From: Nemertoderma westbladi
Taxonomy: Eukaryota > Animalia > Xenacoelomorpha
NCBI GenBank assembly: GCA_032718475.1
Contig: JAUCBJ010000047.1
Coordinates: 1-43,412 of the forward strand
Reading direction: 5' to 3'
Length of the DNA stretch: 43,412 bases
In this document: in pieces, positions 5,871 to 36,319 of the stretch
How positions within the stretch are numbered: position 1 is the first letter of the stretch
Layout: every line of letters starts with the position of its first letter
Made by a program: the position numbers and the translations under genes
Notes under the pieces: model-generated
The model's input: the letters and a program-made list of their open reading frames with translations, nothing else
What the model was told of the DNA's origin: nothing
The model's database searches: none

Positions 5871-6730
5871 TCGCATATCGACGTCGACGTCTGACAGACA
5901 AACAGACAGTATGGATGCCATGAAAGCTGACATCGGAAGTGAAATCTCCAACCAGGAAAATAGCGGAGGGAACTCAGATAGGCGGTGTGCTTTTCTTATC
6001 TGTCAGATTATTCTAGAACGTTACAATTTTTTAAATGCTAGGTACTTATTGCTACTTGTTTTGAGCAATGTTCTATACCTTGTTAGATATTTTATATAAA
6101 GTTCATGTTTGTAGAATAAGTATTTTTTGTTCTAGAATATGTTTAAATATTTCCATAATTTTTTTAGAATATTATCTTTTTATAAACTTACAGTATATCT
6201 TTTTAAACAGCGCGTTTTTGCTAATTTGTTTTTGATAAAATTCTAGAATATGTTAGCAATTAATTAAAATTCTTCAATAGAATTTAAGAACGATATGAAA
6301 AGTGCTGATATCAAAGCAAGGGATAACTTTCAATTTAATTAAATTTAAATTAATATTTTTTAAAATAAATATTTCCATTTTTGAATAAAATTACTAATAA
6401 ATTTAAAATTTAATTTAATTTTCTGGAAAAAATATATTTTTTTATAATGATGTTTATCTACGGTGGGTTATCCACTCTTATAACATTTGTAAAAAACTTT
6501 ATTGCGTATTTATGAATTAATCCGCTTGTTGCCATAATAATTACCGAAGTGTTCCAGAGCTTCGTATTGTGATGGTAAATATCACTTAGGTGTCCTAAAC
6601 TATTGGCCATGCAGCCTGAATTTACTAGCTAACTTGAGGGTTTAGATTACATAGTAAACACAGTGGAAATTTCAGGTAAATAAAAAAATGAAATATTTTG
6701 TAAAAATTGGTCATGTTTATTTTTCTTCCT

Positions 6731-7600
6731 CTACACCTACTATTACTACTACTACTACTAGGTCGAGCGAACTCGGACAGTGGAAATGAGATCCTTCCAG
6801 GCTTCCCGATTCTCCATAGTTGTCGCAATTTAGTTTCTCCTAAGTTCAGTATCCCTTTCAAGTTGATCTATATATGTTACGGCCGGTCGTCCACGACTAC
6901 GCTTTCCATGAGTTGGTTGCCAGAGAAGTAGATCTGGTATGACCTCGTCTTTACTTCGCCAGCAGTGCCCACTGAATCTTAATCTGCGTTCACGGAGGGT
7001 GGTTGATACAGGTGGTATTGTACCATAAAGCTCGGCGTTTATCATGTATTGTCTCCAGCTGATGTTTAGGGCTGCCCGGCACTACTATGTCTTGTACACA
7101 CCCCCCCCCCCCCCCCCACTTTTGTTTTAGAACATATTTATTGTTCTAGAACACATTTATTATGTTCTAGAACAAAATTTATTTTGATAAAAAAAAATAT
7201 TATTGTTCTAGAACAAATTTTTTTTCTAGAATTTATTTTTATTTTTCCAGTTTCTATAGTAATTATATATTTCGAGAATACTAGATTAGTAGTGCCGGGC
7301 TGCCCTTAGTAGTCTTGTGTAGCAACCATCAATTTGTTGTTCAAGTGATTTAGTCAGTGTCCAGGTCTCACCCCCGTATAAAAATACACTTTCCACTGTG
7401 GCTCGAAAGAACTTAGTCTTCAGGTGCCTGGAGAGATCTGATTTCCAGATAGTATCCATTTTTGATAGAGCTACCCAAGCCTTTGCTTTCCTAACTTCTA
7501 TGTCCTTTTTGCTACTCTCTATCCATGATCCAAGGTACTGGAAGTCATCGACCTTCCTTAGTTGGTTATTATCAATGGTTGTCAAGTTTCCATCAACATC
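6731..7600 (-). mobile_element. 5'-truncated RTE-like LINE 3' end with a (TAG)n tail, interrupted by a MITE
   Basis: VDDFQYLGSWI...FFRATVESVFLYGGETWTLT...LLRAA continues across the insertion as LNISW...RERRLRFSGHCWR...GKRSRGRP. A tandem TAG tail lies at about 6735-6760 on the minus strand. Confidence 0.9.
7078..7296. mobile_element. 219-bp non-autonomous DNA transposon (MITE) with a 9-bp TSD; Merlin- or Mutator-like
   Basis: TIRs GGCACTACTA (7078-7087) and TAGTAGTGCC (7287-7296); direct repeat GGGCTGCCC at 7069-7077 and 7297-7305. Removing the element and one TSD restores the LINE reading frame. Confidence 0.9.
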
Positions 7601-8957
7601 AACAACATCCTCTGCACCAGTCCTACAAAATTACTACAGTTTAAATGTTCTAGAACGATCGATAGCTAGTTAGCACAACTTTTGGCTCTATAGCTAACCA
7701 ATTTTGGTAACTAATTGACCTACATCAAGTTTTGCAAACCTCTGAACGTTGATACATTGTTCTAGAACGTTTACCTATTTGAAAGTATAGAATTGCTATA
7801 GCTCATTTAAACATGAGAAACTTGGCTATAATGCAGTAAGTAATGTGTGTTGTGAGTCCATGAATTTAGAATTTGAGAAATTCATAAAATATTTGTTAAT
7901 AAAGACTCCGGTCATATATCTTAAATTTCATGGTAGCTTGTCATTTTTGATGTCGCTCAAGCTATTTTTCATATATGATTGATTGATTGATATTGAGTAA
8001 AATATATAAAAGTTGAGGTACGTAAACGTGTTGAGGTCCCCACGACCATTATATTTACTTGAATAATACTTGTTATACAAAGTTAATTTAACCCGAACCA
8101 CAAGTCAAATATTTCATTAATGGGGTTCACAGACCATATTTAATTTAATGCTAAGGTCTAAGGTAGTCCAGCGCAATTTAGCTAGCGACCGTATATTTCC
8201 ACTTAGCAATTCCAAATCCTAGAATAATAATACAGTGAAGTAAAGTACAAGGTACTGCTTCAGTACGCGTACACACACCCCACCAAATTTGTATTTGCAT
8301 TAAATGTACCAGAACATGTCAGCTATTTTATTTTGAAAAAGTAATGTTCTAGAACAAATATTTTTTGTTCTAGAACATTTTAAAGCCTGGTTTATAATTG
8401 AAAAGCATGGGATGGTTATAAAACGTGTATAAAATATATTTTTTTAATATTGAGTGACATTTTTAAATTAAATTATGATGATAGCTAGTAAAGCTAATGG
8501 TAGCTAATAAATAATAAACGAAACGATAAAACCAATTTACACAAGAGTCATTTGTTAAAATTTCAAATTATTTTTTTACTACTAGTACCTTTTAAAAAGT
8601 AGGCCTACTAGCTAACACAAAATCAAAATTACTAGCTACAATCTTACTGGCAGAAGGTCAAATATAAACCTTCATATGAAAGAAATTGGTCAAAAAATGG
8701 GTACCCAATACATAAAATTTTACCCAATACATAAAAATTTGAGATACATAGGGCCTATGCTACTAACTATTGCCCCAGAACGTTTACTACGCACAAAGTG
8801 GCACATAGTGTATAGGACTAGCTAGTTTTTGCAAAAGAAAAATGGTATGTTTCCACTACTTAAAAAGTTATTATATTCGGAGTCATGGTTTGTTAGTATA
8901 AACACGACCTCTTATCTTTGAAATTAGTTTCAACCTGATAAAAGCAATTTGTGAAAG

Positions 8958-10214
8958 ATGGATGTTATAGTTAATCAAAAAATATCGAACTTAGATATTG
9001 GTATCCACCACGAAGAGATTGCTGAATCTCACGCCCGCGGGATAATGGCTATTCATCTCAAAATATGTCGGCAGGTTAATATTAGTAACTTTTCCGTAAT
9101 GAGCAAAGAATTCGCATTGCAAATTACCCTGAAACTCAACAACCTTTCCCATAAATCAAAAGTAATCAAAGTGGACGCAAGTCAGACAGGCGAGTCGCAT
9201 GCGAAACAAAATATTCTGGAAATGGTATGTTTCGACGAGGTTAAACACATCCCCGTTGATGTGAGTAACTTTTACGAGGACGAAATTAACTTTGTCACGT
9301 TGACGGTGATGGGACAAGAAGAGGAAGATGTGCCGCGAGTGATAGGATCGGCTCGGTTTCATCTTTACGACGCGGTTAAAATATCCTTCCTCTCTCGGAG
9401 CCACGAACTGCGACGCAAGAAGATGGTGACCGGCTACCTCGACGCTGACATCGTGTTCCGTTACGGCACTTTCGGTTTTGGATTCAGTGAGATGCTAGAA
9501 GATCAGCAACGACCCATCTCCGATCAACTCGCCAACTCCTTGTTCCTTAGGATAAGACCACCCACCCCCAACTTCACTGTCCCCCACATCGGGGTGCTTC
9601 TTAGCTACCCCAAGGAGCATCCGCCATTCTTGCCTTTCACTGAAAAGGTTAGTCTTGTCTCACCCGACCATATGTTGCCGATTGGGCCCTTTGCGGATGA
9701 GGATTGGCTGGAAGGGGATAAATGTAAGATGGAACATTTAATGAAGAAGAGCGGGCCGAGATTGTCACACTTGTTCTCTGAGTATCAGAAGTTGCCCTAC
9801 AGGAAACAACGTAATCGTTTCATACGGAATCTATTGCGGATGCAAACCGAAGATGATGTTATCATGTTGGGGGCTTTGAAGGATCCCGGTAAGGCGCAGC
9901 CGGATGCGGAACCGGATACCGGAAAGACTGAAAATCAGTGGTTGATTCCGGCTCTGGATATGACCAACTCGAGCGCGGGATCCAGCGAATCGATCGTATT
10001 GTCCCCGTCTCCCCATTTCATGAACGCGTCCTACGCTGAGCGCGGAGTGTTGGGTCGGTGGTGGAACGGCTTCACCTCCTTCTGTTGTCCGTGGAGGTCG
10101 CGGACAGTGGAAACTCCGTATTCGATGATGACAATGATGAAGACGCCCGCGACAGTTGCGGACGAAGGGATGCCCACTATCCCAAAGATCAGGGTCAGTA
10201 AAACGAGGGGATAG
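8958..10214 (+). CDS. C2CD6: Single-ORF C2-domain protein of the C2CD6/ALS2CR11 (CatSper targeting subunit tau) family, 418 aa
   Basis: Motifs GIMAIHLKICR, FDEVKH, IGSARFHLYD, FRYGTFGFGFS, SLFLRIRPP and EHPPFL occur in the same order as the recalled ALS2CR11 motifs (AVHIK.CR, FDEVKY, LGS..VHLYE, FSYGNFGYGFS, SMFMNIAPP, EYPAFL). GC content is higher than the flanks. Confidence 0.75.
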   Translation: MDVIVNQKISNLDIGIHHEEIAESHARGIMAIHLKICRQVNISNFSVMSKEFALQITLKLNNLSHKSKVIKVDASQTGESHAKQNILEMVCFDEVKHIPVDVSNFYEDEINFVTLTVMGQEEEDVPRVIGSARFHLYDAVKISFLSRSHELRRKKMVTGYLDADIVFRYGTFGFGFSEMLEDQQRPISDQLANSLFLRIRPPTPNFTVPHIGVLLSYPKEHPPFLPFTEKVSLVSPDHMLPIGPFADEDWLEGDKCKMEHLMKKSGPRLSHLFSEYQKLPYRKQRNRFIRNLLRMQTEDDVIMLGALKDPGKAQPDAEPDTGKTENQWLIPALDMTNSSAGSSESIVLSPSPHFMNASYAERGVLGRWWNGFTSFCCPWRSRTVETPYSMMTMMKTPATVADEGMPTIPKIRVSKTRG

Positions 10215-10732
10215 TACCGTAAATTATTTGTGTGAATATTAAATTAATAGCAACTATCGATATTAACAGAAGATTCAAAATTAATTTTGTGTACTGTACA
10301 GCATTCATCAACTGATGATTGATTTAATGTATTCAAAGACCTTGGAGGAATGTGAGCGATGATTATTTATTGAAATTGAAAATGGAAACTTTTCTAGAGA
10401 ATGATGTGTATTTTGAGAAATAATAAGAACGAATCCTCCAGATAGGTTTACCGCATTACATTTTTGAGGATAAGAAACATAATCCGTTTACTCAATCAAT
10501 AAATGGTTTTATTTGATTGTTAGAGGGTGTTAATATTCCATTTGTAAAGAAGACTTCTGTATTCTAACTGATGGTTACTACTGCTATTTGTTATTTCAAC
10601 TGGCGAATGTTTAAAACTATAATACTCTAAACTAAATGCAATAACAACAGTCAACACGCGCAATTAGCAATTTTAATTTAGTATTATTTATTAATAATTA
10701 GTTCAGAGTTTCAATTACAACCATCCCTGAGG

Positions 10733-12300
10733 CGAGTAAGGGTTGGAAGAGTCCTGGTATCAGTGTCCAAGTAGTGTGGAGTGAGGGTGGGAAGAGTCAA
10801 GGTATCAGTGTCCAAGTAGTGTGGAGTGAGGATGGGATGAGTGCAGGTATCAGTGTACAAGTAGTCTGGAGTGAGGGTGGGATGAGTGCAGGTATCAGTG
10901 TCCAAGTAGTGTGGAGTGAGGGTGGGATGAGTGCAGGTATCAGTGTCCAAGTAGTCTGGAGTGAGGGTGGGATGAGTGCAGGTATCAGTGTCCAAGTAGT
11001 GTGGAGTGAGGATGGGATGAGTGCAGGTATCAGTGTCCAAGTAGTGTGGAGTGTGGGTGGGAAGAGTCAAGGTATCAGTGTCCAAGTAGTGTGGAGTGAG
11101 GGTGGGATGAGTGCAGGCATCAGTGTCCAAGTAGTGTGGAGTGAGGATGGGATGAGTGCAGGTATCAGTGTCCAAGTAGTGTGGAGTGTGGGTGGGAAGA
11201 GTCAAGGTATCAGTGTCCAAGTAGTGTGGAGTGAGGGTGGGATGAGTGCAGGTATCAGTGTCCAAGTAGTGTGGAGTGAGGATGGGATGAGTGCAGGTAT
11301 CAGTGTACAAGTAGTCTGGAGTGAGGGTGGGATGAGTGCAGGTATCAGTGTCCAAGTAGTGTGGAGTGAGGGTGGGATGAGTGCAGGTATCAGTGTCCAA
11401 GTAGTCTGGAGTGAGGGTGGGATGAGTGCAGGTATCAGTGTCCAAGTAGTGTGGAGTGAGGATGGGATGAGTGCAGGTATCAGTGTCCAAGTAGTATGGA
11501 GTGAAGGTGGGAAGAGTCCAGGTATCAGTGTCCAAATATTGTGGAGTGATGGTGGGAAGAGTCCAGGTATCAGTGTCCAAGTAGTGTGGAGTGAGGGCGG
11601 GAAGAGTCCAGGTATCAGTGTCCAAGAAGTGTGGAGTGAGGGTGGGAATAGTCCAGGTATCAGTGTCCGAGTAGTGTGGAGTGAGGTTGGGAAGAGTCCA
11701 GGTATCAGTGTCCAAGTAGTGTGGAGTGTGGGTGGGAAGAGTCCAGGTATAAGTGTCCAAGAAGTGTGGAGTGAGGGTGGGAAGAGTCCAGGTATCAGTG
11801 TCCAAGTAGTGTGGAGTGAGGGTGGGAAGAGTCCAGGTATCAGTGTCCAAGAAGTGTGGAGTGAGGGTGGGAAGAGTCCAGGTATCAGTGTCCAAGTAGT
11901 GTGGAGTGAGGTTGGGAAGAGTCCAGGTATCAGTTAGTCCATGTAGTGTGGAGTGAGGATGGGAAGAGTCCAGGTATCAGTTAGTCCATGTAGTGTGGGG
12001 TGAGGATGGGAAGAGTCCAGGTATCAGTTAGTCCATGTAGTGTGGAGTGAGGATGGGAAGAGTCCAGGTATCAGTGTCCATGTAGTTTGGACTGAGGATG
12101 GGAAGAGTCCAGGTATCAGTTAGTCCATGTAGTGTGGGGTGAGGATGGGAAGAGTCCAGGTATTAGTGTCCATGTAGTGTGGACTGAGGATGGGAAGAGT
12201 CAAGGTATCAGTGTTCCAGTAGTGTGGAGGGATGGTGGGAAGAGTCCAGGAATCAGTGTCCAAGTAGTGTGGGGTGAGGGTGGGATAAGAGTTGAGGTAT
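10733..12300. repeat. 45-bp minisatellite, about 34 copies (some 48-bp variants at the right end)
   Basis: Unit ggtatcagtgtccaagtagtgtggagtgagggtgggatgagtgca; variant units cluster by position within the array. Confidence 0.97.
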
Positions 12301-16790: not shown

Positions 16791-16991
16791 TCAATTATTT
16801 TGTGGACTGCTGCTGGTTGCCAGGTAGCATTGGCGTAAATCTTTGGACGGTTTCCAGCGACACTTCCCGTGCGTCCGACTGGCTTTGCAGACCGAGTGTT
16901 GGCTTTGGCATTCCCCTCTCACCGTATCTTTGATTACACATCGCTTGGTATGGCCTCTTCTGTGGCACTTTGAATCTTCGCAGTTAACAAC
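16791..16991 (-). CDS. TIMP: TIMP coding exon 5 (last; C-terminal domain and stop)
   Basis: Acceptor tgtttcag|GTT; encodes VVNCEDSKC...KRC...GECQSQHSVC...GKCRW...RQC...*, matching the TIMP C-domain cysteine pattern. Confidence 0.92.
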   Translation of the reverse strand, partial: VVNCEDSKCHRRGHTKRCVIKDTVRGECQSQHSVCKASRTHGKCRWKPSKDLRQCYLATSSSPQNN

Positions 16992-17426: not shown

Positions 17427-17551
17427 CTGGCATTCACAGCTCGACTTGTATTTGCTTCTAAATCCTCGCCTTTGTGTTGCGGAAAGTTTCTTCCATTCTT
17501 TGTACCAATTGCAACTGGAAATATCCATCCCGCCGTTCGGGGTTTGTTCAC
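17427..17551 (-). CDS. TIMP: TIMP coding exon 4
   Basis: ttttag|GT...CAG|gtatgt; encodes (G)EQTPNGGMDISSCNWYKEWKKLSATQRRGFRSKYKSSCECQ, matching the TIMP C.W...W..LS..QR.G....Y...C.C pattern; phases fit the neighbours. Confidence 0.93.
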
Positions 17552-17723: not shown

Positions 17724-17850
17724 CTGTCAGTATATATGTGTGGTTTTTCTTCAGATCTACTGCACATGATGTATTTTCTTCACTGGACGCAAATAGTTTG
17801 AAATGTTTTCGTTTTTGTTTGCTGACTCTTCCTTTGTACACAGTTTTAAC
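17724..17850 (-). CDS. TIMP: TIMP coding exon 3
   Basis: tttaacag|GTT...ACA G|gttagc; encodes VKTVYKG...SSEENTSCAVDLKKNHTYILTG (K.YKG, C.V.L and Y..TG motifs). Confidence 0.93.
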
Positions 17851-18176: not shown

Positions 18177-18319
18177 TCTGACAACGTAGGTATCGAGTGT
18201 CAACTTGTCATCACGTTCTCGGAACTTCGTCAGTCCCCCTGATTTGTTATCATAAAATGTGTTGTCGTAAAATCTTCCGTAGAAACCCGATAACGAGTTA
18301 ATAATTTTCGCCTTCACCA
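18177..18319 (-). CDS. TIMP: TIMP coding exon 2
   Basis: ttttctag|TG...AGA|gtgagt; encodes VVKAKII...DTYVVR (equivalent of VIRAK); phase 1 in and phase 0 out fit the neighbouring exons. Confidence 0.9.
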
Positions 18320-19563
18320 CTAGAAAAAAAAACAAAATAATAAGTAAATATGTTTGTATGTTTTTAATCACAAAAAATTTAATCACAATCTTAGATGAAA
18401 ATCACAGTACAATCGTATCGAGGTTAAAGTTTTTTTAAACGTCACATGTAACGATGGATACCGGTAATGAAATGTATTTCCTATTATATTCCTATGAATA
18501 TGGTGGAATTGAAATTTGTCGATATATATTCGTATGATGTAATTCGTCGATGTATATATATATATATATTACGTCTTATCATCAACGAGCAACAATATTA
18601 ATAACAACAACATCGACCTTCAACTGCATCTCTCAAAACAACTGATGCATGGAATTTTAATTCACTACGTTTATGCCACGAAATAAATTAAAACTTTTCC
18701 ACACAGAATTTCACTAACTCCATGACAAATTTCCATCGGCTCTTTGCCTGCTTAATTCAGCAGACAGCGGTAAGGAGTTCCAACATGGATGAGTCATCAG
18801 ACTGGGTCTCTTGGGAGCATCCCGTGAGGGGGAATTCAATTGGGGAGTTGTTGCTTATTAATCATTCGTGGGACACTGCAGGTGCCCGTGTGTGCCTACC
18901 GCGGGATTAGTTAGTCTGAGTACGTGGTAGTACGAGCGCTTGCTAGTTTACGATAACGCAAATCTTTGCTTCTCATGTTCAACTAAAATCAGTGTATTTT
19001 TAAAGGGTTTTGTATTTCCATGAAGCCACTTTGTGAAATCAATCAATAGTGAACGGAATAGATAACGCGGGATCTCTATGGGCCGCGGCAACATCAAGGA
19101 CTCACGGCCACCTTGAGATTCCCAGGGATGTAAGATTCGCGGCTTACTCCACTCCACCTGCAACCTGCACTTCCAGAGATCGCTATATAGTAACTAAAAG
19201 ACAAGCTGTTCCCAACCGCAATTGCGGTTTTTCGCGTTAATTAAATCCTAAACGCGACATCCCAACGTTCAAACTATCATTGATTCGTGGAAGCGACAAT
19301 CAATACCTTTGTTGTGGTTGACTTGTCTTGTCTTGTCTCACTTGTCTTGTATTTCTGATGTTCGGGTTGGGTTGACGTCGATAACTGAATAAGAAGTCCA
19401 GGGTACGGAAACTACACACACCCCTGGGCGATTTAGGAAAAACCATGAATGAGTTTGTATTTGTGTAGTTTTATTTATGTTTTAACCTTATAATATTGAC
19501 AGTTCTCTATGGAACTGTTAATGTAATGTAACGATGCTTTTCGTGGCTTAAGCATACTCATAC

Positions 19564-19880
19564 GATAAAGATTTATGACCAGTAAGGGTCTTGAGCCTCT
19601 GCTATTATTAGTTTACCATAACGCTGCTATATTAAACACAATATATAAATAAAATTTAATTAAAAATAATTCAAAGAATAAAAAGATATATACAAATGTA
19701 TTTGTATATATATTTGTTTGTTTGGCTTTGAATTGTTTTTAATTAAATTTTAATTATATATTGTTTAATAATATATAACCACTGAAGATGGGCGGGAAGT
19801 GTGAAATAGCTATATATGGTAAACTAATAGTATTTTATATTAGCCGTGGCTCAAGACCTTTCTCGCCATAAATATTTATC
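19564..19880. mobile_element. About 320-bp foldback (long imperfect inverted repeat) element in TIMP intron 1
   Basis: gataaagatttatgaccagtaagggtcttgagcctctgcta pairs with the reverse complement of the right end. Inner arms (aaaatttaattaaaaataattcaaag / ctttgaattgtttttaattaaaatttt) also pair, centred near 19698. Confidence 0.8.
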
Positions 19881-21844
19881 TATGGGACTGTAAAATTGTA
19901 TCTCCACCCCACCCAGATAAAGTCTGGCGTGCGCAATAAAATTAGTTGCTATGGTGCAGCTAGTGTCCGACCTTCAAGTGTATGAAGTACATTAGTAGGT
20001 ATCTTCGCATTAAGTTATAAAAATGTACTGGTCTAACTATAAAAATACTAAATAAAAATAATGACTATAATTTATGACGACAATAAATGCAATTGAACAA
20101 TACCAACCATAGACCACGTCAGTAACATATAAATATAAGTACCGGACCGGTAGTATTATTAACTTGAAGCGGGAAAAAAAGTGCGAAGTTATTACATTGT
20201 CATGAAATATTATGTCATAAACTACGATCATGATCATTACTGTCCGAAAACATCACAACAGGGCTCATCGGCGATTATTATGAAAATATATAATATAATA
20301 AATAAATAATAAAATAATAATAATAAATTAATTAAGTAGAAAATAATGAATTAGTACCCCAAAAGAGGTCAAATCTTTTAGTCTTTCCTTTTATATTTTT
20401 TCACCTTCAATATTAAGGGTAAGGAGCATTTTGCTGCTTTTTTATTGTTACAATAAATTAATATACTACAAGTTCAATATAATATACGAAACAATAGTAA
20501 ACTAATTTCCGTTTTCCTTTGTGTCCACTGTCAGACCTTCTGTCCCCTCAGACGTATTATTACAACGGCATTGTTTCATTATGATATGGAATGATCTCTC
20601 GGCTTGGAGGTATTCATAGATTGTTTCTGGTATGATAAGAATTTCTTTGTTTCCTAAATAACTAACGGTTTATTACGTAACATACCGCAACTTTGCGGTA
20701 ATTAGTACATGATATTGTGTAAGAGCATATAAAAGGAATGCTAAGGCATGGACATTGAACAATTGGTATACTCAGGTAAAATTAGCATTATTTGGCTCAG
20801 GTTTGTTATGAGGTTACTCGTGGGAAAGCATTTAGAGAAATTACTGTGATATTATCCAGGGTCTCACAAATATTAGGCCTACTATTTCCTATGCCATCAT
20901 TTACTGAAGACTTGTCACGATTATAATGTGTCAGCATTGCCGTGGATTGATTACTTCCCTCGGCTTATGACTTTTATTTCCGGCCAGACCGCGCCCTGCC
21001 CAACCCCGTCTCTATTATTATAGTATTGAGTTTATTTGTTTATTGCCTTACAGTTTCTATGAAATAATTTAAAAATAGCGTGTGATGTTCTATCTGTGCC
21101 AGAGAGAAGGTAGGCGCTTCTTGTAACGGAGATGATATAATAATGAATAAAAAAATAATGAATAATAATTAATATGTTATTATGTTCTAATTGCCAAAAG
21201 CATACATAATGAATATTGTTTAATCAGATTCTCCTGTTGATTTTTCCCTGTTGTGTAAATCCTAACATAAATAGTTCTGATAAACTTTCACTTTCTCGAT
21301 CACCTTATCTTGAGTAGAGTACCGGTACCATTGAAGCTGATAAACTTTCATTTTCCCAATCACGTTGTCTTTAGTACCGGTACCGATACCATTCAGCACT
21401 TTTCTTCAGATATAAACTTCTGAGGTACGGTAGTAGTGCGCCGTGAACCGGTAGTGTCGGAAGAGTAGGTTGGCCTATTAAATTTAACATTTACTGTAGG
21501 CCTACCGGTATTGTGTCCCATTTTGAGAGTGTAATTGATTACATAGGCAGATAGGTCCTACCGAATCAGGGAATGCATAGAATAATTCAAAATATACCGG
21601 TAGGCTCTAGGCCTACCTCTGTCCGGTATGCGTGCAGATGGGTGGGAAAGATAAGTCGTATTCTCGTATAAGCATACAAAATTGGGAATATTGTGTAGTA
21701 GAGATAGGCTACGGTATCTATCATCAACGGCTATTATTGTCGGTAGCATTAATACGAATATCATAGCGATTTCTTTAGTTTGGTATCATTAGGTATTAGT
21801 CCGTTGCATTCCTTACCAGCAAAAACATTCACTAAGACTGCACT

Positions 21845-22876
21845 ATGGCCTCAAAGCACGTGGACCAGGTTGTGGCAGATAATTTTGCAGATGACAGTGA
21901 CGAAGAATCTTTCTTCCAAGACATCGATCTGCTGCAACAGCACGGAATCAACGTACAAGACATTAAAAAGCTCAAACAATCCGGAATCTGCACCATTCGT
22001 GGCATACACATGACCACTCGGAAAAAACTGTGCCTCATTAAAGGCATATCCGAAGCAAAAATGGAAAAAATTAAGGAAGCCGCATCTAAACTGTCAAATA
22101 GCGGCTTCTGCACCGCACTGGAATACAACGTAAAACGTCAACAAGTCTTCCACATCTCCACAGGGAGCGGTGAGTTAGACAAACTCCTGGGAGGAGGGAT
22201 TGAGAGCCAAGCTATTACTGAGGTCTTTGGGGAGTTTCGAACCGGTAAGACGCAGCTGTCGCACACGTTGTGCGTGACGTCACAGCTCCCGGGTGCCGGT
22301 GACTACTCTGGGGGGAAGGTTGTGTTTATAGACACGGAGAACACCTTCCGACCGGATAGGCTGGTGGATATTGCGAACCGATTTAATCTTGACGCTGACG
22401 CCATGCTTGAGAACGTGCTGTACTCCCGGGCCTACACGAGCGAGCACCAATTCGAGTTGCTGGACTGCGTAGCCACTAAACTACACGAGGAGCCCGGGAT
22501 ATTTAAATTGGTGATCGTTGATTCCGTGATGGCTTTGTTTCGTGTTGATTTCTCAGGTCGGGGGGAGCTGGCGGATAGGCAGCAGAAGTTGGCGCAGTTG
22601 CTGAGTAGGTTGCAGAAGATCTCTGAAGAGTACAACGTCGCGGTTTTTATAACCAATCAGATGACAGCAGACCCGGGTGCTGCCCTCAGCTTCCAGGCCG
22701 ATCCAAAGAAGCCGATTGGTGGTCACATCTTGGCGCACGCGTCAACCGTTCGCGTTATGTTGCGTAAGGGCCGTGGGGAGGTGAGGATAGCTAAGATATA
22801 CGACAGTCCCAATCTCGCTGAGACTGAGGCCACCTTCGCTATAATGGCGGGGGGAGTGTCGGATGCGAAGGAGTAG
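21845..22876 (+). CDS. DMC1: Meiotic recombinase DMC1, full length 343 aa, no coding introns
   Basis: N-terminal [25 protein letters not shown], Walker A GEFRTGKT, Walker B LVIVDS, DMC1-type [19 protein letters not shown] and [18 protein letters not shown] (RAD51 has ELSARQMHL and GGNIIAHAS). Confidence 0.98.
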
Positions 22877-23244
22877 CCCCTCCTAACGATAGGAACTAGT
22901 AGCTCCTACTACTAGTGCTGGTGGAAAGTTTGGTTAACTCTATATTTAATTTTAGTGTAATTTATTGAAATTTTTATTTTATGGTAATTAATGTGTTTGT
23001 TTTCTGTTTATTAAATCCTTATTTTGGTTATACAATGTTATCATATCATAAAGATACAATATCGTTCAATTAAAAAGGTATTATTCTCACTAATTAAGAT
23101 CTTATGCGACTTGCAATTGCAAATTGTAGACCAAGACCACAATACTTGGAATTTGTATTACACTCTATTATAATACTTTGAATTAAAAACAATTATAACT
23201 CATTAGCAATAATAAGTACGAGTAAGTATTAGCGTTTATCTTAC

Positions 23245-23380
23245 CTAATGGCGAGGTACAGTAGGCAACTTGTGGATGCGCAATTGGCGGACATTGGCAG
23301 GCGTAGCAGAGTCTGTTACTCAACCACAGCGCCATACAGAGCACACTAACTGCCTCCCTTCTGGTCCTCATGTACATCAT
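23245..23380 (-). CDS. TIMP: TIMP coding exon 1 (signal peptide and mature N-terminus); the five exons join to 732 nt / 243 aa
   Basis: Hydrophobic leader followed by CQCPPIAHPQVAYC (TIMP signature C-x-C...HPQ..[FY]C); donor G|gtaaga. The start Met is uncertain among three nearby ATGs. Confidence 0.94.
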
Positions 23381-26300
23381 CCTGGTAGATCCAAGGTTCT
23401 TGATTTAATCCAATTGGGCCGATGGAAAATATACACAATAGAGAACTTCATTAACTAATTGCTTATTAAATTAAGATTGAGTATTAATTATATGAGACAT
23501 TGTAAATGTTACAAGCAATAGCTTCGTCTTTTTATGGTATCCCTACCGTAAAATTTTGTTGGGAATACCGCTTAAACGGTTCTTTTAAGTTTAACTTCTT
23601 CCATGTTACATACCAATCTAGCTCATCAACAAAAGGATAGCAAATATAGCGCTAAACGCCCATTGGTTGACAGTGCGGAGATGGTAACTTGCTATTGGTC
23701 AGTTGAGGTGGGGTTATTTATAATAGTTTCTTACTTGGCTGGAAAAATATGGTGGGAATGTTAGTTACAATGGGGAACCCCACCATACCTATGTATGTAT
23801 TTATATTCCACAGTGGGAGGCCTTACTAACTTAATATTCATTCATATTAATTATTACGTATTTTGGTTTTATACTGAACAATAATATTGCTTTAATGTTG
23901 CCGCCACAGGTTGGTCTAAATGCTCAACACATTAGTCCCATATTTATTACCAAAGAGGGTGTCTATTGACAATGGGCGGCGTACTTTGATGTCCCATATG
24001 AAAGTTTAGCCGACATATAATAGGCCCGCCCCTATAATTATTCATACCATTGAAGTATGGGCCCGATTAACTGGTAATTAGCACACGTGGGGTTAATTAC
24101 CGCATTGTCTTCAATGAGGAATTATTTTTTACAAACTTGAGTTGGCTGCAACTGCACTGCAAACCAAAGGGTCTATTCAGGTTTAGTTGTATATAATGTT
24201 AATATAGTAAACACTCATTCACACGTTCACCAAAACGTACACCCTTTGACCTTTTTAATATCTATACGACCTCTTATTGTACTCATTTTTTTGCACACCC
24301 ATTATTCGGCCAACATCGCAAGGTCGCCTCGGCAACGCAACTCAGACACAGTTCGCTGTCAGCCATGGAATTCGCGATTTCTTCTGTAACCAGAAATTTT
24401 AGTGAAAAACCTGATAGGTATAACTGAACCAATTTAAAATTCGGGAATTTCTCGGATTGAATTGAAAATATTTCCGAGACTATATTTCACTTTATTGTTT
24501 GGTTTGATTTTGAGTGATCCACATATTTTTCATTTTTATGTATGTTTTTAAAGCATGGTATATTTGAAACTTCATCCCTTTGTTTATTTATTATGTTGTT
24601 TCTACTGCACCATATGTGTATGTAAGTATGTTGTTCTGACTCAGTATCCAAATGGATTGAGTGGTATGTGTCCTTCTGTTACAACACAAATTCCACCTGT
24701 GGCACATGTCGTTCTTGAAACAAAGCGACATGCTGCTGTCAGGGGGTCCATCATATATGTCGTTTTAACTTTTCATATCTCGTAACGAGAAATACTCTGT
24801 AAATGTCGTTTTTACACAATAAATTTGAACATTTTCTGATTCTATTCTTTCTGATTCGACTGCAGCAAACCTAATTTTCTAAATTTTATGGTATATGTAG
24901 TTCTAATTCTTTACCGACGTTATCCATACATTCTGTATTTAAACACATTCAAAATGTATCTCTAATTCATTTATATACACTATGCAACAATGTGTATCAA
25001 CAATGTCCTGACAACTCGTGTCAGCTGAAGAAAAACGTATGTATATACGGTACCATTCATATATCTGTCTTTTCATTACCAATTGCTGAAACAGGGGAAA
25101 GGTACAAGTTCCAGAAGCGGTAGTAAAACTGTAAAGCTGGTCACCGATTTACAGATCTGATTCCGGACACAAGTTGTCCGGACATTAATAATTATTCGGA
25201 AGCGAGTTGTTTGTATCAATAAATTCATGTGTTCCCATTTACTCGTGAAATATGTTTTTGTGCTCTTACGATATACCATTTCAAATGTAACGTTTGTTTT
25301 ATTAAATGCCAGCTTCACAAGCACTGCCTGGTTTTTTTGTTTAGCGCGATATACTAACTGAAAATGCACATAATGACATAGATTCGTACACACACAAATA
25401 CCATATACTTTTAATTAATATTAAAATCTCATGATCGAACTTGGGGAGGTTTTAAAATACTACCGTCAAGGACTAGGGCAACCCGTTGAAAGATATAACC
25501 AACGATTGGTTATTATGTTAGGAATGAGAAGGGAATGCCTTATTCATTAATTTCTTCCTTCCATCACATATTATGATTATGAATCACGACCATATGGCGG
25601 TTGACTGCTTCCCAGGAATGTTTGTTATTAATTGGTTGTGTTGTTACTATGTTACTCATGATGTAACAACATAATGCTGCAAAAGTACCAGATGTACTAT
25701 AATTATATACCATATTCTCCTTTTGCTAAATACCAAATGCAAAAATAGTCTGGCAGATATATTTTTCATTGAACCTTGCTTGGGATTATAATAGTAAATG
25801 TTGTTTAAGATTGCTGTTTATGCAATGTTATGCTTTTGAATCTAATTTTAAAATTAATTACACTGTATAAAACATCAATATCTTTAAGATATAGCACACT
25901 TTATAACTTGAAGCAGGGCTGTTCCCATTGGAATAATAGTGAGAGAAAACGTTCTGGAAATCACCCTTGAAAATCGTATTGCTTTTGTATATAAAGTCAT
26001 CCGGTGTATATATAATTTGGTTACTTTAAGGAAAACCATCAAAGATGCCAGTTGTGCATCACTCGGATTATTGATGACAACAATATTACCGGAATCAGTT
26101 AAAGACATCTACTATAACATAACATATTTCTATGCAAGGTAAACGTTATAATATCTGCCAAACTAAATGGATGGAGATTTAATGAATTTATCTTCCAAAC
26201 AATCAATTGTTCGTTTAGGCCCGGTTCATACTAGCTAAATCGTCTAGCAACTAATTCGTTTAGACCCTAATGCAAGCAATCCTTGCACGTGTGACCGGGC

Positions 26301-26385
26301 CATTCAAGTCAATACATACTATCTGTTTTACACAAATATTTTCTGTCTAATTAACTAAATGTTTCTATATTTTACTATTTTGCAG

Positions 26386-26591
26386 TTAATCACACCAAAG
26401 TTTCCGATTGTAGTAAAGATTGGACATGCTAACGGTGGGGTAGGTAAGGTGAAGGTGAACACGCATCATGAGTTCCAGGACATCGCCAGTGTAGTGGCAG
26501 TAGCCAATACCTACTGCACAACTGAACCATTTATCGAAAGCAAATACGATATTCGTATCTTTAAGATCGGGGGATCCTACAAGGCTTTTAT
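26386..26591 (+). CDS. SYN: Synapsin internal exon (domain C, ATP-grasp)
   Basis: tttgcag|TTA...AT|gtaagt; encodes [69 protein letters not shown]. Confidence 0.97.
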
Positions 26592-26922
26592 GTAAGTTGT
26601 TATTTTAGTTGGGGTAAATTGCTATTATATTAGTTAGTTATATTAATTATTGCTGGTCTAATATTTTCCGGTGGAGAAAAGGATGACCTCTCACACAATA
26701 TAATATTGAAAAGTTGCCGCTTTAATCTGTAATTCCGTAGATATGATATTGTCACTCTAAAATACATCCTCCGACCTCGAATTTACATTATTGCATAAGA
26801 AATTTATTTGAACAAATTTATTTCCGGTATACCAAATCATTTTGCACCTCTCAGCACAACACCTACATTTTCATATGATAGTTGCAAAAATTGATCGCAG
26901 GTAAAAAAAAACAGTGCTCTCC

Positions 26923-27079
26923 TGCGCAAACTGGCCGCAAGTGAAATATAGTTTCGATTATTGTTTTGGTTAAAAAAAACACTTCAACTGTAAATTTATC
27001 CTTTCCCTTAATGTTTAAAAATAGAGTGAATTACTTTTTGAGAACACATAGTTGGTGTTTGTGGTCATTTTGCGACATT
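26923..27079. mobile_element. Short MITE-like dispersed repeat (copy 2, related to 13486-13647)
   Basis: Shares ccgcaagtgaaat...tttcg.ttattgttttggtta...actgtaa...cctttcc...ggtcattttg with copy 1. Confidence 0.65.
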
Positions 27080-27154
27080 AACTCACAATTTTATGTAAAC
27101 CGCCATCACCATTATTTTTCACTTCGCTACCAATATTCACTACACATATTATAG

Positions 27155-27335
27155 GAGGACTAGCGTGTCACCAGGTAACTGGAAAGCCAACACGGGATCG
27201 GCTATGCTCGAACAAATACAAATGACGGACCAGTACTACTTCTGGGTCAACGAAGTTTCTAAACTTTTTGGCGGACTCGATATTTGCGGAGTTTCTGCGC
27301 TCAAAGGTCGCGATGGCCGCGACTATATTATTGAG
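27155..27335 (+). CDS. SYN: Synapsin internal exon (domain C)
   Basis: atag|G AGG ACT...GAG|gttagt; encodes [60 protein letters not shown]. Confidence 0.97.
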
Positions 27336-27782
27336 GTTAGTTGTATTTACATGTCTTTTAAAGACCATTTCTGATACTTGGCGTATTTTATATGAAGATT
27401 GGGGGATATGGAAGAGTGGGAAGATGGTATATACTCAACGGGAATAGCGGCTAGGTTGGTTCCTCTTTCAGTGCCATTAGTAGGCCTACTTTGTCGTAGG
27501 ATTAGTCGCTTGTTGATTTCTATACAAACGGTTAGCGATAATTCCCCGTCCCAAGTATTGCTGATTGTCCGACCAGGGAACGTAACACAAACCTCTTTCT
27601 GTAACAGAGTGGGTTTAGTGAAGGACCAGGTTATAGATTTCCTAGGTGGGAGAAACCTAAACAATAAACGATAGTTATGAATTTATGCCTTAATATTTTT
27701 AAGGTCAAAAAGATAAAAATCTAGTGACAGAAATTGTAAATTGATTTATTCTATCTAAGTACATTAATTAAATATAAATTGG

Positions 27783-30530
27783 TTATATCTTTTCGTTTGC
27801 CACTGTAATTTCCCCCTCCTGCTGGTACTTTGCTTTGTCGATGGCTTGAACACGCCGCACCTCCGCCGGTTGTGTCAGACTGTAACCGCCACCTACATAA
27901 CGCCGGGACCCGGTTCGCTGAATCAACAACTCTTTGTGAGGAATAGAGTTATAACTGATGGCATCCTTTTTCAATTTGATATCGTAAAACTTTTTTTTGA
28001 CAAGATTGAGTTTGTGAGACATTTCATTATTACGTGTATCACTTTTCTGTAAAGTCGTTTCGCACATCTGTAATTCTGCTGCCAAAGCCTTTATATGACC
28101 GTTCTTCTTTCTCATTTTCATCTGGTGTTCTCTTAATATGTTCTCTTTTTGTGGTATTTTTGCAAGAACCTGTTGCAAACCCGCTATCATTGTATCCTTT
28201 TCCTGTAAATATATTTCTAATCGGAGAACATCATCGGTTTTTTTGATCAATCTCTTTTGGAGTCTGCTAGTTTTTTTTATTTGCTCGTAAGTTGACGGAT
28301 CTGCTCCTTTTAGTTTCCTCCATCGGTGGAGGTTTAATGGATCCTTTAGAGCTTGCTCCATCGCTCCACATCTTCTGCGTTCATTCAATAATTCCACCTG
28401 CCCTTGCCTCACCTCCAATCTGAGGTTGTCAGCTTTAACCATGTCCTTTTCGGCGATGGATTTTTCTATTCGTAGTTTCTTGATCTCGACCTTCAACAAA
28501 CGAATATCTTCTAACCGCGTCTTGTAATCTATTTCCCCTGTATCCATAATTTTTTGTTGCAGTTTGACTTTCTCATGGAATAAAGCTATGGCCTCGTTTT
28601 GACGTATTAACTTTGTTCCCAATAAATCTCTTTCTGACATTAATTTGTCTAGTTCAGCCTTTCGACTTACTGAATCCCGCTTTAAAGATTCTATAATTGA
28701 CATAAGTTCATTTTTCTCGATATCTTTGTCCTGCAGGGCGAGTTTCCGTTCTTCAGATTGGTTTGTGATTCTCTGCAGTTCTCTACGTATCGCTTCTTTC
28801 TCATTTTCAATTCTGTGCAATTCTTTGCTCTCATTCTCCAATGCGTTCTCTTGTGCGATAACTTCTTCTTTCAACTGGTCGATTTGATGGTCCATGGAAT
28901 TTAACTTACGTTCGTGTTCCGTTATCACATCTTTCGCCGCTATTAGGTTTTTATTGTATAGGTTTCTATCCTGTCTGACGTCTTCATACAACTTTTCCTG
29001 AACCCTAAATTTCGCGTCTGCTTCTGCTAATTTCTTATTGTAATCGCTAATCTGATTTTCTTTAATTTTTATATTTTCCGTATACTTAAGTAACTTTTGA
29101 TTAATTTCGTTATAATCATTTCGACAATTGTTTCTTTCGTTCTCAAGTTTTAGCATTATTTTGGCCTCTTTTTGTGCTTGTGTAATGTGGTTTTTAATTT
29201 CTGTTTCCAAATTCTTTGTTGTTGATTCAATTAGCTTTCTAATTCCCGTTTGTTTTTCCACTTCATTCGTTAGATTTAGTATAGTTTTTGTTAGCGTGTC
29301 CCGCTCTTTAATAAGATCATGAGTTAATTTCTTTTCATCCTCAACTTCTTTTCTTATAAATTCTTCTGTCTTTTTATTACTTGTATTCAAAGCTTTGAGA
29401 CGTTCCGTTTCATTTTCAAGATTTTCCTTGTCCTCTTCTAAACAAGTCACTCTTCGCAATGCACTATCTCTCTCTTTTACCACTTTTTGGTTCTCTTGAT
29501 TTAGTCTATGTATGACATCGTCTTTAACTTTTAAACTGGCTGCTTTCACGTTATTTTCAGAGTTCAATGCGTCGTTTATGATCAACTGATTTTCATATTC
29601 AACGTTTTGTTTGGTGTATCTGTTACTCAAAACCTCTAATTCTCTGGTAACTTTCTCCAGGTTGAATTTCGTTTCCCTGTAAAGTTGCTCCATCTTGGAT
29701 AATTCAGATATATTCTTCTCGTTTTGAATTTTAGTTTCTTTCAAATCTCTCGAGGTTGTCTCAACCACTTGTTTCGACTGTTTTAAATCATTCTCACATT
29801 TTTCCCTCCGTCGTTTTTCCCTTAGAAATTCGTTAAACTTACCCTGCACTTCGTGTTTTAATTCACCGATGTCAAACTCATGCTCCTCATTTATCGCCTG
29901 CAGTGTTGTTTGCTCAGTCTTAGCTAATGCTAACAGATTCGTGTACTTCTCCACACTGTCGTTGAGGGAGGCATTCTCCAAAACTAATTCGTCAGTCTTT
30001 TGTTGAAATTTGTTAATATCTTCGGAGGCTGCTTCCGATAGTTTCCCCCCTTTATCAACAACAGTTCTGAGACGATGTATCTCGAGTTTCATGTTATTCA
30101 CAGATTCCTTGGCTTGCATCTCCTTTTCGTTTGCGGCGTCTACCATCTTCCACGCATTCTGGATTTCTTTCTTCAATATCAACACTGTATCTCGATCTTT
30201 ATCAGATAGCATCTGGATGGTTTTCATCTTAATAGTGTTCGCAATGATATCACCATTAAGCTCTTTACATTTCTCAAGAACTGTACGTTCTGATTTGTGA
30301 CTTTTCTTTAAAGCCTTTAAAAGTTTCTCATATTCAACTTTGTATTTTTCGACTCCCTTCTCACTCATCAAAGAATGAAGAACATCTTCAAATTCCCGTT
30401 CGAGATTTTGTGTAACTTCATCAGCGACTTCTACAGGCAGATTGTCTGTATCTTCCGCAATAACCTCTAATTTTTCTTTGCTAACCACTTTGGCGTCGTC
30501 GCTCAGACTATTCTTTATGTAGTTATTCAT
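27783..30530 (-). CDS. CFAP58: Cilia- and flagella-associated protein 58 (CCDC147) family coiled-coil protein, 915 aa, no coding introns
   Basis: Motifs YKVEYEKLLKALKKSH, IQNAWKMVDAA, YEDVRQDRNLYNKNL, SERDLLGTKLIRQNE, RLEDIRLLKVEIKKLR, PLNLHRWRKLKGADP and RYVGGGY. Minus-strand AATAAA at 27745-27750. Confidence 0.92.
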   Translation of the reverse strand: MNNYIKNSLSDDAKVVSKEKLEVIAEDTDNLPVEVADEVTQNLEREFEDVLHSLMSEKGVEKYKVEYEKLLKALKKSHKSERTVLEKCKELNGDIIANTIKMKTIQMLSDKDRDTVLILKKEIQNAWKMVDAANEKEMQAKESVNNMKLEIHRLRTVVDKGGKLSEAASEDINKFQQKTDELVLENASLNDSVEKYTNLLALAKTEQTTLQAINEEHEFDIGELKHEVQGKFNEFLREKRRREKCENDLKQSKQVVETTSRDLKETKIQNEKNISELSKMEQLYRETKFNLEKVTRELEVLSNRYTKQNVEYENQLIINDALNSENNVKAASLKVKDDVIHRLNQENQKVVKERDSALRRVTCLEEDKENLENETERLKALNTSNKKTEEFIRKEVEDEKKLTHDLIKERDTLTKTILNLTNEVEKQTGIRKLIESTTKNLETEIKNHITQAQKEAKIMLKLENERNNCRNDYNEINQKLLKYTENIKIKENQISDYNKKLAEADAKFRVQEKLYEDVRQDRNLYNKNLIAAKDVITEHERKLNSMDHQIDQLKEEVIAQENALENESKELHRIENEKEAIRRELQRITNQSEERKLALQDKDIEKNELMSIIESLKRDSVSRKAELDKLMSERDLLGTKLIRQNEAIALFHEKVKLQQKIMDTGEIDYKTRLEDIRLLKVEIKKLRIEKSIAEKDMVKADNLRLEVRQGQVELLNERRRCGAMEQALKDPLNLHRWRKLKGADPSTYEQIKKTSRLQKRLIKKTDDVLRLEIYLQEKDTMIAGLQQVLAKIPQKENILREHQMKMRKKNGHIKALAAELQMCETTLQKSDTRNNEMSHKLNLVKKKFYDIKLKKDAISYNSIPHKELLIQRTGSRRYVGGGYSLTQPAEVRRVQAIDKAKYQQEGEITVANEKI

Positions 30531-31619
30531 TGTGAACTACAATCTTTTTTATATCGGCAAAAACACTGAACTATTTTGTCTCTATATGATATCCAAATTA
30601 ATTAATTAAGAAAATTAATAATTTAACAATTAATATTTATGTTATATATTTCACGTTTACTTAGTCACATGCGCCTTGTGTATTTATCATTTAATAATGG
30701 TTTTCACTTCACTTACTCCACCTATTTACAGTTATCCCATTGCCCAATTAGAGGTGAACAAATTAGTCTATTGGAATAAATAATTCTATTTATATACTTG
30801 TGTAAAATAGCACTTTACAATGTGGTGATTCGAATGGTTTGATATGTCAGCGAATGTCGGTGAATTATACATATAGATACCCAAATAGGCCAAAACACTG
30901 TAAAGTACTTTGCATCAATTGTAGTAGATTTATTCCTGAATTGTAACATTATAAAACGTTCTGATTGCTGATAAAAAATGGCATATGAAACTTTTGTTGT
31001 GAAAAAATGGTGAAACATTTTTTTTGGTGGAGTTTGAAGGTACTAGTGTGTTATCTGTCTAGAACAATAATTAGTTGTCCAAGAACAATAATTAGTTGTC
31101 CAAGAACAAGAATTAGTTAGTTCAAATGCACAAAATGACTAGCTAGATTATGTAGTGCAAAATATTATTTTAATATTATTTACCGTACAGTTGTAAAGTA
31201 AATGTAATTAATTGAAAAAAGATGATATGAATTTCATTATATTTTCCCAAACAATATTTAAAAGTGCTTTTAATATTTAACAGATTTGTATTTCCCTTTC
31301 GTTATTTACCCACCAGTTAACCCGAAACTGTTTGGTTTACATTGAAAATTTTAGGCGGGTAAATTTCGGATTCATATTGATGTAGATAACGAAATAGTGT
31401 CTTTATTACTAAAAATGTATTAATTAATATTCTAGAAGTATAATTAATATTCATAAATAGTGGCCAAGGAGCCGCTATAAATAATACCCCCCCCCCCCCC
31501 CCCCCTTCTCATCCTGCGGCCACGAAGTCACTTGTGGCGTATGTCTTTATATATAGAGACAAAAATAACCAAATTAAAAATGAAATACAAATAAAAAATT
31601 GTATATTTTTGTGATTTAG

Positions 31620-31738
31620 GCGAGTGACTGTTCGTTGCCATTAATGGGAGATAAACAGGAGGAAGATAAACGACTGATTGCCGAGATGGTAATGATTCGA
31701 ATGCAACAGGAATGGAAACCTCCGGCTCAACCTCACCA
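31620..31738 (+). CDS. SYN: Synapsin internal exon (end of domain C); not in the ORF track
   Basis: gatttag|GCG...CA|gttagt; encodes ASDCSLPLMGDKQEEDKRLIAEMVMIRMQQEWKPPAQPH (compare MPLIGDHQDEDKQLIVELV). Confidence 0.95.
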
Positions 31739-32185: not shown

Positions 32186-32724
32186 GTCAGTTCCCCAGTC
32201 TCCTCCGCTTCCGTCTAATCAACCCGGTAACCCACAGACGGGCGGCCAATCGCTGGGCGCCTCTCCAATGCGCGGCCCAGTTCCTACCAGTCAACCAGGT
32301 GGCGCTACTACTGGTGTCGGTCTGCGAGGCCCTCCTCCACCGCAAGGCATACGTCAACCAGTACCGCAGGGGCCACTGCAAGGACAACCAAGTCATCCCC
32401 CGGGGCAACAGCAGGGACCTCCACCCGGACAACATGGACATCCCCAAGTGCAACATGGACCGCCACAGGGGCAACATGGACCTCCACAAGGGCAACATGG
32501 ACCACCACAGGGGCAACATGGACCGCCACAGGGGCAACATGGACCTCCAATAGGGCAACATGGACCTCCCCAGGGGCAACAAGGACCTCCCCAGGGGCAA
32601 CATGGACAACCACAAGGGCAACACGGACCTCCCCAGGGGCAACACGGACCTCCACCACCTGGTCATCAACCAAATCGACAACCTGGAGCCCCTGCTCCGT
32701 CACAGCCACCACCCAGACAACCCG
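32186..32724 (+). CDS. SYN: Synapsin exon encoding the Pro/Gln/Gly/His-rich disordered domain D
   Basis: ttttag|G TCA GTT...CCC G|gtaggt; phases match both flanking exons; contains 11 x 21-bp GPPQGQH repeats. Confidence 0.9.
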
Positions 32725-35115: not shown

Positions 35116-36319
35116 GGTGGAAATTTGCCTGATAGCCAGATAGGCCTACTGCATTACCTAACGGTAGGCGGGGTATAGCTATTAATAACCAGTAGCTAAA
35201 TTATTAACATGGCTCCAAACGCCACCATAAATATAAGCCAACTTATTTATAACATAATTAATGTCATTTTTACATTTATTTATACAGCGACTAATATAAT
35301 TTGTGCAGTTTCTATCACTTATAATGTATATGTACAATCATTTCATAATTTTGGAATAAAACTACATGCATACTTGTTGCAAAGTACTTTACAATTTCTG
35401 ATCCTCGTGATTTTATTTTCACTCACTCACTAACGTTCGTTCGTGTAACAAAGCCACTCGGATCATCACTCTGTAACCACTTTACACACAAGTATGTAAA
35501 TAGTTATTACACCTGCGCAAGGTTATTTTATTCTATTTAAGAAATACCTCATATTCTAAAACACTTCATCCCATACGTAGCTGGGCAACAATGCAATAAC
35601 TCTATAATCATACTATTACGTAGCTATTCGTACATAAACAAAGTGTTCCGGAATATGGTTTATTTGTTAAATATAATTAAACAGCCTCGTGCAGGCGCAA
35701 AACCATGCAACTTTCTAACGCTTATATATCAGCTATTTTACGTTTATTGTGATACATACATAATTTGGAATGCTTGCATGGCCAGCTTTCCGTTAATATC
35801 AACAAATCGCTATAAGGTTGAAGAATAACTGCGGTGTAACTGGCGCAATACCGACGGAGACACCTTTTTCAAACGCTTGTAGCTAAAGAATGAAAGCAAA
35901 TATAAAAGTTCTGGCTCACCCAGCAGGGAGGAGGGAGGTGAAACTATCTCTGTTTCAAACTCCATGCAATCTCATTACGATTTGTAGAAAAATCTGGGGG
36001 GAGGGGAAGGGGGTCCAGGTAACTGAATAACGATAACTCTATTCCAGGACATTGTGTATATATAATATATAGATAGGAATATATTAAGATAAAATAAAAC
36101 ATTTGATAAATAGTGCAGCCTGAGTAACATTCGTGTGTTTAAAGTAAGCATGATTTGTTTGGATTGTCTTGCAATTTTTCGTAATGTGTTACATATTTGC
36201 ATGAATTTCTGGTTATTAAATTTTCATGTTACAACACGATTGAAATAGAATATAAGTACAATAATTAGACTCTGGTAATTAGGTTACACAGGCTGCACTA
36301 TAATTTACCGGTACCGGCG

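Follow-up and report, generated by a model that had tools for sequence, protein, structure and literature searches.

An intact, intron-free DMC1 gene within the first intron of TIMP, itself most likely nested in synapsin, in Nemertoderma westbladi

The nesting of TIMP within synapsin (Syn-TIMP) is a textbook arrangement kept across animals. Here, we analyse a 43,412-nucleotide (nt) stretch of Nemertoderma westbladi DNA (contig JAUCBJ010000047.1, assembly GCA_032718475.1; about 35% G+C, animal DNA), referred to as the window, in which this arrangement contains a further gene. A complete DMC1 gene on the plus strand lies between exons 1 and 2 of a TIMP gene on the minus strand, and TIMP in turn precedes a series of synapsin exons on the plus strand (Table 1). 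An earlier note, made from the sequence alone, had proposed a three-level nest with strands alternating plus, minus and plus. The inner two levels of this layout were borne out directly, with the DMC1 transcript (21793-23093) and its open reading frame (ORF) both falling within TIMP intron 1. The outer level is argued by homology and from an RNA-like contig, and on these grounds TIMP most likely sits inside a synapsin intron.

Table 1. Genes and gene parts at the nested locus and in its surroundings, in window coordinates
Feature	Position	Strand	Remarks
DMC1 ORF	21845-22876	+	343 amino acids (aa), single coding exon, no intron
DMC1 transcript	21793-23093	+	one contig of read run X4; 5' untranslated region (UTR) of at least 52 nt; 22 loose letters after 23093
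TIMP coding exon 1	23245-23380	-	27-aa leader, mature start CQC
TIMP intron 1	18320-23244	-	4,925 nt, phase 1, GTAAGA...TTCTAG; contains DMC1
TIMP exon 2	18177-18319	-	from frame and splice sites; alone without Pfam match
TIMP exon 3	17724-17850	-	13.9 bits
TIMP exon 4	17427-17551	-	Pfam TIMP 48.4 bits (cut-off 23.1)
TIMP exon 5, to stop	16791-16991	-	8.3 bits
Synapsin LITPKFP exon	26386-26591	+	first exon after host intron
Synapsin exon, ends IIE	27155-27335	+	follows LITPKFP exon
Synapsin exon, end of C domain	31620-31738	+	from exon search
Synapsin Pro/Gln-rich exon	32186-32724	+	from frame and splice sites
Synapsin last exon, E domain	39431-39606	+	stop at 39606
CatSper-tau/C2CD6-like ORF	8958-10214	+	intronless, 418 aa; same inferred synapsin intron as TIMP
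CFAP58-like ORF	27783-30527	-	intronless, 914 aa; in next synapsin intron (27336-31619)

The product of the DMC1 ORF passed the NCBIfam model for DMC1 (TIGR02238, 543.5 bits, cut-off 447.7) and failed the one for RAD51 (TIGR02239, 422.5 bits, cut-off 478.05), and its top matches in the PDB were DMC1 proteins (589 bits vs 358 for RAD51). Identity to the best 120 homologues listed was 76-83%, and those among them with a family name were all named DMC1. The Walker A (GEFRTGKT at 129) and Walker B (LVIVDS at 222) motifs are both intact, and Q247, P277 and G278, which we take to be DMC1-invariant loop residues, are the same in all 120 homologues listed. To follow the gene in reads, four runs (X1-X4) of three samples were compared with positions 21301-28000; X1 and X2 are possibly from the source sample, while X3 is independent. 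X3 shows no amino-acid-changing difference from the window in the DMC1 ORF, where the rate in non-coding flanks (18 differences in 2,173 sites) predicts 6.6 (P 0.0014 by Poisson and 0.006 by Fisher test). Both of the differences that X3 does have in the ORF (n=2) are silent, as are both in TIMP exon 1 (n=2). The best reading is that the nested DMC1 is transcribed and under constraint. By family it is a meiotic recombinase, and what is known of the family suggests that it would be used in meiosis here as well.

The five TIMP exons are separated by GT-AG junctions throughout and join into one open frame of 243 aa; the intron 1 junction between 23245 and 18319, given in the earlier note, proved exact. 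The joined translation reaches 104.7 bits (E 2.9e-34) with a profile made from four Pfam-confirmed TIMPs, and its mature chain starts with Cys-Gln-Cys and has 14 Cys. Exon 1 alone scores weakly (E 0.035-0.13), and a PDB search using it gave no matches; X4 cover of this exon runs on to 23557, marking its 5' UTR. A TIMP first exon to the left of DMC1, which the earlier note had named as one outcome that would refute the nesting, was not borne out. On the minus strand of 18320-23560 there are four Cys-x-Cys sites with a phase-1 GT, three of which were rejected; the site at 23299 alone has a Met-led leader, an HPQ motif and a TIMP profile score. Because this exon lies to the right of DMC1, DMC1 lies inside the 4,925-nt TIMP intron 1. 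The assembly across DMC1 and TIMP exon 1 likewise held, since X1 and X2 each bridge 21301-24742 with one contig; in X2, another contig bridges 24726-28000 and reaches the synapsin exons. For the long contigs of X1 and X3, the left end computes to 18493 and 18487, respectively, and X3 covers 21301-23077 and 23179-24742 with two contigs, the gap between them having depth. TIMP intron 1 also contains, at 19584-19861, an element that is of a foldback type or resembles a miniature inverted-repeat transposable element; it is built from inverted repeats nested in one another (arms of 39 nt at 95%, with two outer pairs).

The five synapsin exons downstream of TIMP form a continuous open frame through the E-domain stop, and the position of TIMP before the LITPKFP exon stood as the earlier note had it. 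TIMP at this locus has five exons, is antisense and lies directly upstream of the conserved synapsin C-domain exon, as expected of a Syn-TIMP unit. That C-domain exon presumably corresponds to mammalian synapsin exon 6, and the 206-nt and 181-nt synapsin exons appear to be fusions of exons 6+7 and 8+9, respectively, judging by the mammalian exon sizes. In a synapsin tree, from which one chosen homologue without the anchor motif was dropped, the window synapsin shares an open fork with amphioxus and vertebrates; neither this tree nor that of DMC1 (see below) placed the animal. The 206-nt and 181-nt exons agree with a double synapsin intron loss, giving fused exons, that has been reported for Ciona, and each of the losses for other phyla too (PMC2825198; here and below, literature is cited from the available parts of the sources). 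No upstream (N-half) synapsin exon was found within the window, the best profile score being 2.1 bits; in this search, every one of the 82 held-out test pieces from the upstream exon reached at least 54.2 bits. Therefore, the host intron would be longer than 26 kb and would begin to the left of base 1.

The outer level and the independent expression of DMC1 both draw on run X4, which behaves like a transcriptome in its empty bins (13 of 30 without depth) and in its breaks at splice sites. Its eight listed pieces comprise four on genes and four on repeats, and three of the four gene pieces break off at a predicted splice site and continue in other letters; the fourth is DMC1. One contig begins precisely at 23245, the TIMP donor, and has 90 other letters attached; a second, with 412, begins at 26385, adjacent to the synapsin acceptor 26386; and a third, with 35, ends at 27336, the next synapsin donor. 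A chance G shared at the join would produce the one extra base at 26385 and at 27336. As an indirect check, the X4 word share of 0.23 fits a spliced set that includes TIMP exons 2-5 (0.217-0.231), as compared with 0.169 for a set without them (standard error 0.012). The 412 letters joined at 26385/6 support the existence of upstream synapsin exons beyond the window, and they bear on the alternative that the nest has two levels only, with the 5' half of synapsin located elsewhere than left of TIMP as a result of a split gene or a misjoin. Such an arrangement would account for the 26 kb devoid of upstream synapsin exons, and an error could have escaped us to the left, where repeats and pieces resembling long interspersed nuclear elements (LINEs) occupy 5000-12300 and the read comparison starts only at 21301. 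Nevertheless, given these joined letters and an antisense TIMP at the position where Candiani et al. (2010, PMC2825198) report conservation of the Syn-TIMP nesting from Nematostella through to human, we regard a two-level nest as very unlikely.

The X4 contig covering DMC1 ends 19 nt after an ATTAAA at 23069-23074 and 151 nt short of the TIMP exon 1 donor, and the loose letters beyond its end are likely a poly(A) tail or adaptor. Its first base, 21793, directly follows an AG (21791-21792), which could be chance (AG frequency 0.07) or could mark an acceptor site, either of the 5' UTR or for trans-splicing. Because DMC1 is on the same strand as synapsin and its contig begins after this AG, DMC1 could also be conceived of as a last exon that synapsin uses alternatively, with transcription starting from the synapsin promoter. 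However, this contig shows no letters ahead of 21793. Moreover, a TAA stop lies in frame three codons upstream of the ATG, and splicing to 21793 in phase 0 would miss the reading frame (52 nt), so that no synapsin-DMC1 fusion protein is possible. Of the readings considered here, this one is the least probable.

DMC1 is not the only intronless gene at the locus, and the earlier note had missed two more, both from sperm-type families. The C2CD6-like ORF matches Pfam CTSRT with 48.2 bits (cut-off 24.4) and has a C2 domain, and CTSRT is also its first match in the Atlas (0.94); the records of this CatSper-tau/CTSRT family in the Atlas match are mostly from chordates. The CFAP58-like ORF is 39% identical to homologues that are themselves 62% alike and is possibly a fast-evolving sperm paralogue. 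X4 lacks cover on the 218 nt of it that fall in the compared stretch, an observation that we did not use as evidence. Thus, all three recognisable germline-type genes in the window are intronless while their hosts, TIMP and synapsin, keep introns, a pattern that points to retroposition.

At the left edge of the window, a 573-codon ORF on the minus strand (3-1721) runs off the window and encodes an Ala/Glu/Lys-rich coiled stretch, possibly gag-like from a retroelement or a fourth nested gene; it has no match in Pfam, NCBIfam or the Atlas. A block of about 200 nt is duplicated nearby (3130-3330 and 3420-3620). Broken ORFs at 5165-5995, 6830-7630 and 43200-43412 resemble, by eye and with a weak DUF6451 match, remnants of LINE endonuclease and reverse transcriptase, and two minisatellite arrays (10710-12300 and 36280-38190) give rise to long spurious ORFs on both strands. 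A scan of the window with Rfam gave no matches, and the three window proteins tested had no match in the 15-billion collection.

Based on these data, we suggest that an intact, intron-free DMC1, likely a retrogene, lies in TIMP intron 1 and that TIMP likely lies in the ancestral synapsin intron, giving three levels; we assign this reading a probability of about 0.65. In this scenario, a germline DMC1 mRNA would have been reverse-transcribed and inserted into TIMP intron 1, and the C2CD6-like and CFAP58-like genes were likely delivered by the same route. DMC1 is a multi-exon gene in vertebrates. In barley, it has 14 exons (PMC6579892); the literature searched on DMC1 gene structure yielded no invertebrate structure. 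In all three amphioxus species compared, the record carrying synapsin differs in length from the one carrying DMC1 (29.55/23.23, 25.72/22.63 and 22.91/19.73 Mb), which indirectly suggests that DMC1 probably came to the synapsin locus from elsewhere.

Several observations weigh against this proposal. There is no target-site duplication at DMC1, with no 9-mer shared between its flanks, and no genomic poly(A) remnant; both marks are expected to decay in old retrogenes. A metagenome scan for related loci gave no relative that has or lacks the insertion; it returned 80 loci, none with animal flanks and none with synteny, consisting of short transcript-like DMC1/RAD51 pieces and archaeal radA. Full-length DMC1 was called on ENA contigs of 0.7-1.5 Mb (P0126, P0134 and their members, forming a Geodia cluster, with Geodia barretti, and a second cluster), and these calls may reflect an intronless DMC1 in some demosponges. 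As for the reads, the pieces listed for X3 include no single contig across 23078-23178, X4 is labelled 'DNA?' and has no record as RNA, and it is we who infer that the letters joined at its three junctions belong to TIMP exon 2 and upstream synapsin exons. Finally, the protein is somewhat divergent. X4 differs by one DMC1 amino acid, at a column that is variable among homologues; the terminal branch of DMC1 is 0.57 as compared with a median of 0.13 in a quick tree (59 rows, two loci with stops dropped, no starred group); and at 208 conserved columns the protein departs seven times, where the homologues have a median of 1 and a maximum of 8.

The lack of retroposition scars and the DMC1 calls on long sponge-type contigs would suit a different history, in which the introns of DMC1 disappeared in place, or at some distant time, and the gene later entered the TIMP intron as DNA, through a transposon or a small rearrangement. 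Synapsin itself has two intron losses, in its 206-nt and 181-nt exons (PMC2825198), and the foldback element in the same TIMP intron offers a potential vehicle. However, this element lies 2 kb away from DMC1 without flanking it on both sides, and the absence of introns from three unrelated germline-type genes whose hosts keep most of theirs is the bias predicted by RNA-mediated copying. We therefore consider a DNA-level move unlikely.

If DMC1 did arrive by retroposition, the question is whether its parent survives. In all four runs, the excess depth over three raised bins of the DMC1 ORF is fully accounted for by one RAD51-like contig and, as a result, there is no near-identical second DMC1 (at least 90% identical). 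A joint of 22060 to 22637 found in all four runs was rejected as a DMC1 deletion; its loose ends carry what we take to be RAD51-type motifs, and it accounts for the excess depth. The 24-nt/90% rule used here would show two of six foreign DMC1 DNAs and three of ten RAD51-like DNAs, and an old parent could therefore be missed. This weakness of the test leaves room for the nested DMC1 to be a second, faster copy whose multi-exon parent persists elsewhere, as would befit its long branch, its seven departures and the divergent CFAP58-like neighbour. But no run gave a copy of at least 90% identity or a detectable older one, and synapsin is also long-branched (0.40 vs 0.066), arguing that the lineage itself is fast. 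On balance, conditional on retroposition, the chance of a surviving parent falls somewhat below even, and we hold it a little over even that the nested DMC1 is the animal's only one. The further idea that the synapsin locus is a collecting site for germline retrogenes, at which the nested DMC1 replaced its parent, is a tentative one that we rather doubt.

How could three genes share this stretch of DNA? Judging from X4, DMC1 would be expressed as its own polyadenylated transcript without exon overlap with TIMP, while TIMP intron 1 and the synapsin introns would be spliced out whole, over their guests. TIMP would tolerate DMC1 because the guest is antisense to it and is removed together with intron 1. 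For synapsin, the earlier note had held that the pre-mRNA must skip the splice and poly(A) signals of DMC1. We see no special burden of this kind, as the DMC1 coding region is without splice sites, and the visible part of the synapsin host intron already has 49 AATAAA and 33 ATTAAA on the synapsin strand. In other words, an intronless guest would bring in no splice sites and would raise by one a count of poly(A) hexamers that is already in the dozens. Clashes between host and guest are probably avoided by tissue, given that, from family knowledge, DMC1 would act in cells undergoing meiosis and synapsin in neurons. Such a separation would fit the pattern in Drosophila, whose inner genes are RNA-derived and testis-specific (PMC5174743). 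Exclusion is not certain because, in mammals, host and guest can be co-expressed in testis and can alter host isoforms (PMC11694760).

If the nested DMC1 had indeed replaced its parent at such a collecting site, meiosis in this animal would depend on a gene enclosed by two others, a neural/matrix pair whose conservation dates back to the cnidarian-bilaterian split, and three programmes, those of neuron, matrix and germline, would alternate on one stretch of DNA. A Syn-TIMP unit with at least three germline-type guests, one of them in TIMP, would imply that the constraint on this unit does not forbid insertions. The locus would also be a single place in which to study how hosts and guests avoid each other, be it by tissue exclusion, antisense interference or suppression of poly(A) sites. 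For annotation, the locus illustrates that intronic single-exon meiosis genes are easily missed or called pseudogenes in 'meiosis toolkit' surveys.

The overall design at this locus resembles that of known systems. As in the Syn-TIMP pair described earlier, a five-exon, antisense TIMP occupies the intron that precedes the C-domain exon. The number of TIMPs reported there is one, two or ten, and the available text describes no third-level gene (PMC2825198). By contrast, TIMP intron 1 in N. westbladi holds DMC1, and synapsin introns hold two more intronless genes. DDC8 is a testis-expressed gene. In mammals, it is located in intron 1 of TIMP2 (PMC4452049) and is thus likewise a guest in a first TIMP intron; however, TIMP2 is the one mammalian TIMP outside synapsin, so that this nest has two levels, and the guest is unrelated to DMC1. 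Replacement of a meiotic gene by a retrogene is also known, for instance for SYCP1 in amphioxus and Ciona, and is described as relatively common in Ciona (PMC5803294); SYCP1 lies beside conserved genes rather than inside them, and loss of the parent, shown for SYCP1, is a possibility here for DMC1.

The earlier note had known of no described case of a meiotic recombinase inside the Syn-TIMP unit. In the literature searched, likewise, no report of DMC1 in the unit was found, the available parts of PMC4860685 and PMC2680839 having nothing on such an arrangement. The case is less singular than the note suggested in that two more intronless germline-type genes reside here and that double nests as well as nested testis retrogenes are well described. 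In the ctenophore Hormiphora californensis, 484 of 2,357 nested genes are doubly nested (PMC8527503), and in Drosophila there is a handful of doubly nested ('Russian doll') genes, the inner ones of which tend to be RNA-derived and testis-specific, with nesting by RNA-mediated insertion of testis-specific genes as the described rule (PMC5174743). The N. westbladi locus shares with these cases an intronic gene whose host is itself intronic. It differs from them in that its outer pair is a conserved nesting of ancient origin and that a core meiotic recombinase occupies the innermost position. Thus, DMC1 in the Syn-TIMP unit adds a new example to the known gene-in-gene-in-gene layouts, with two levels well supported and the third probable.

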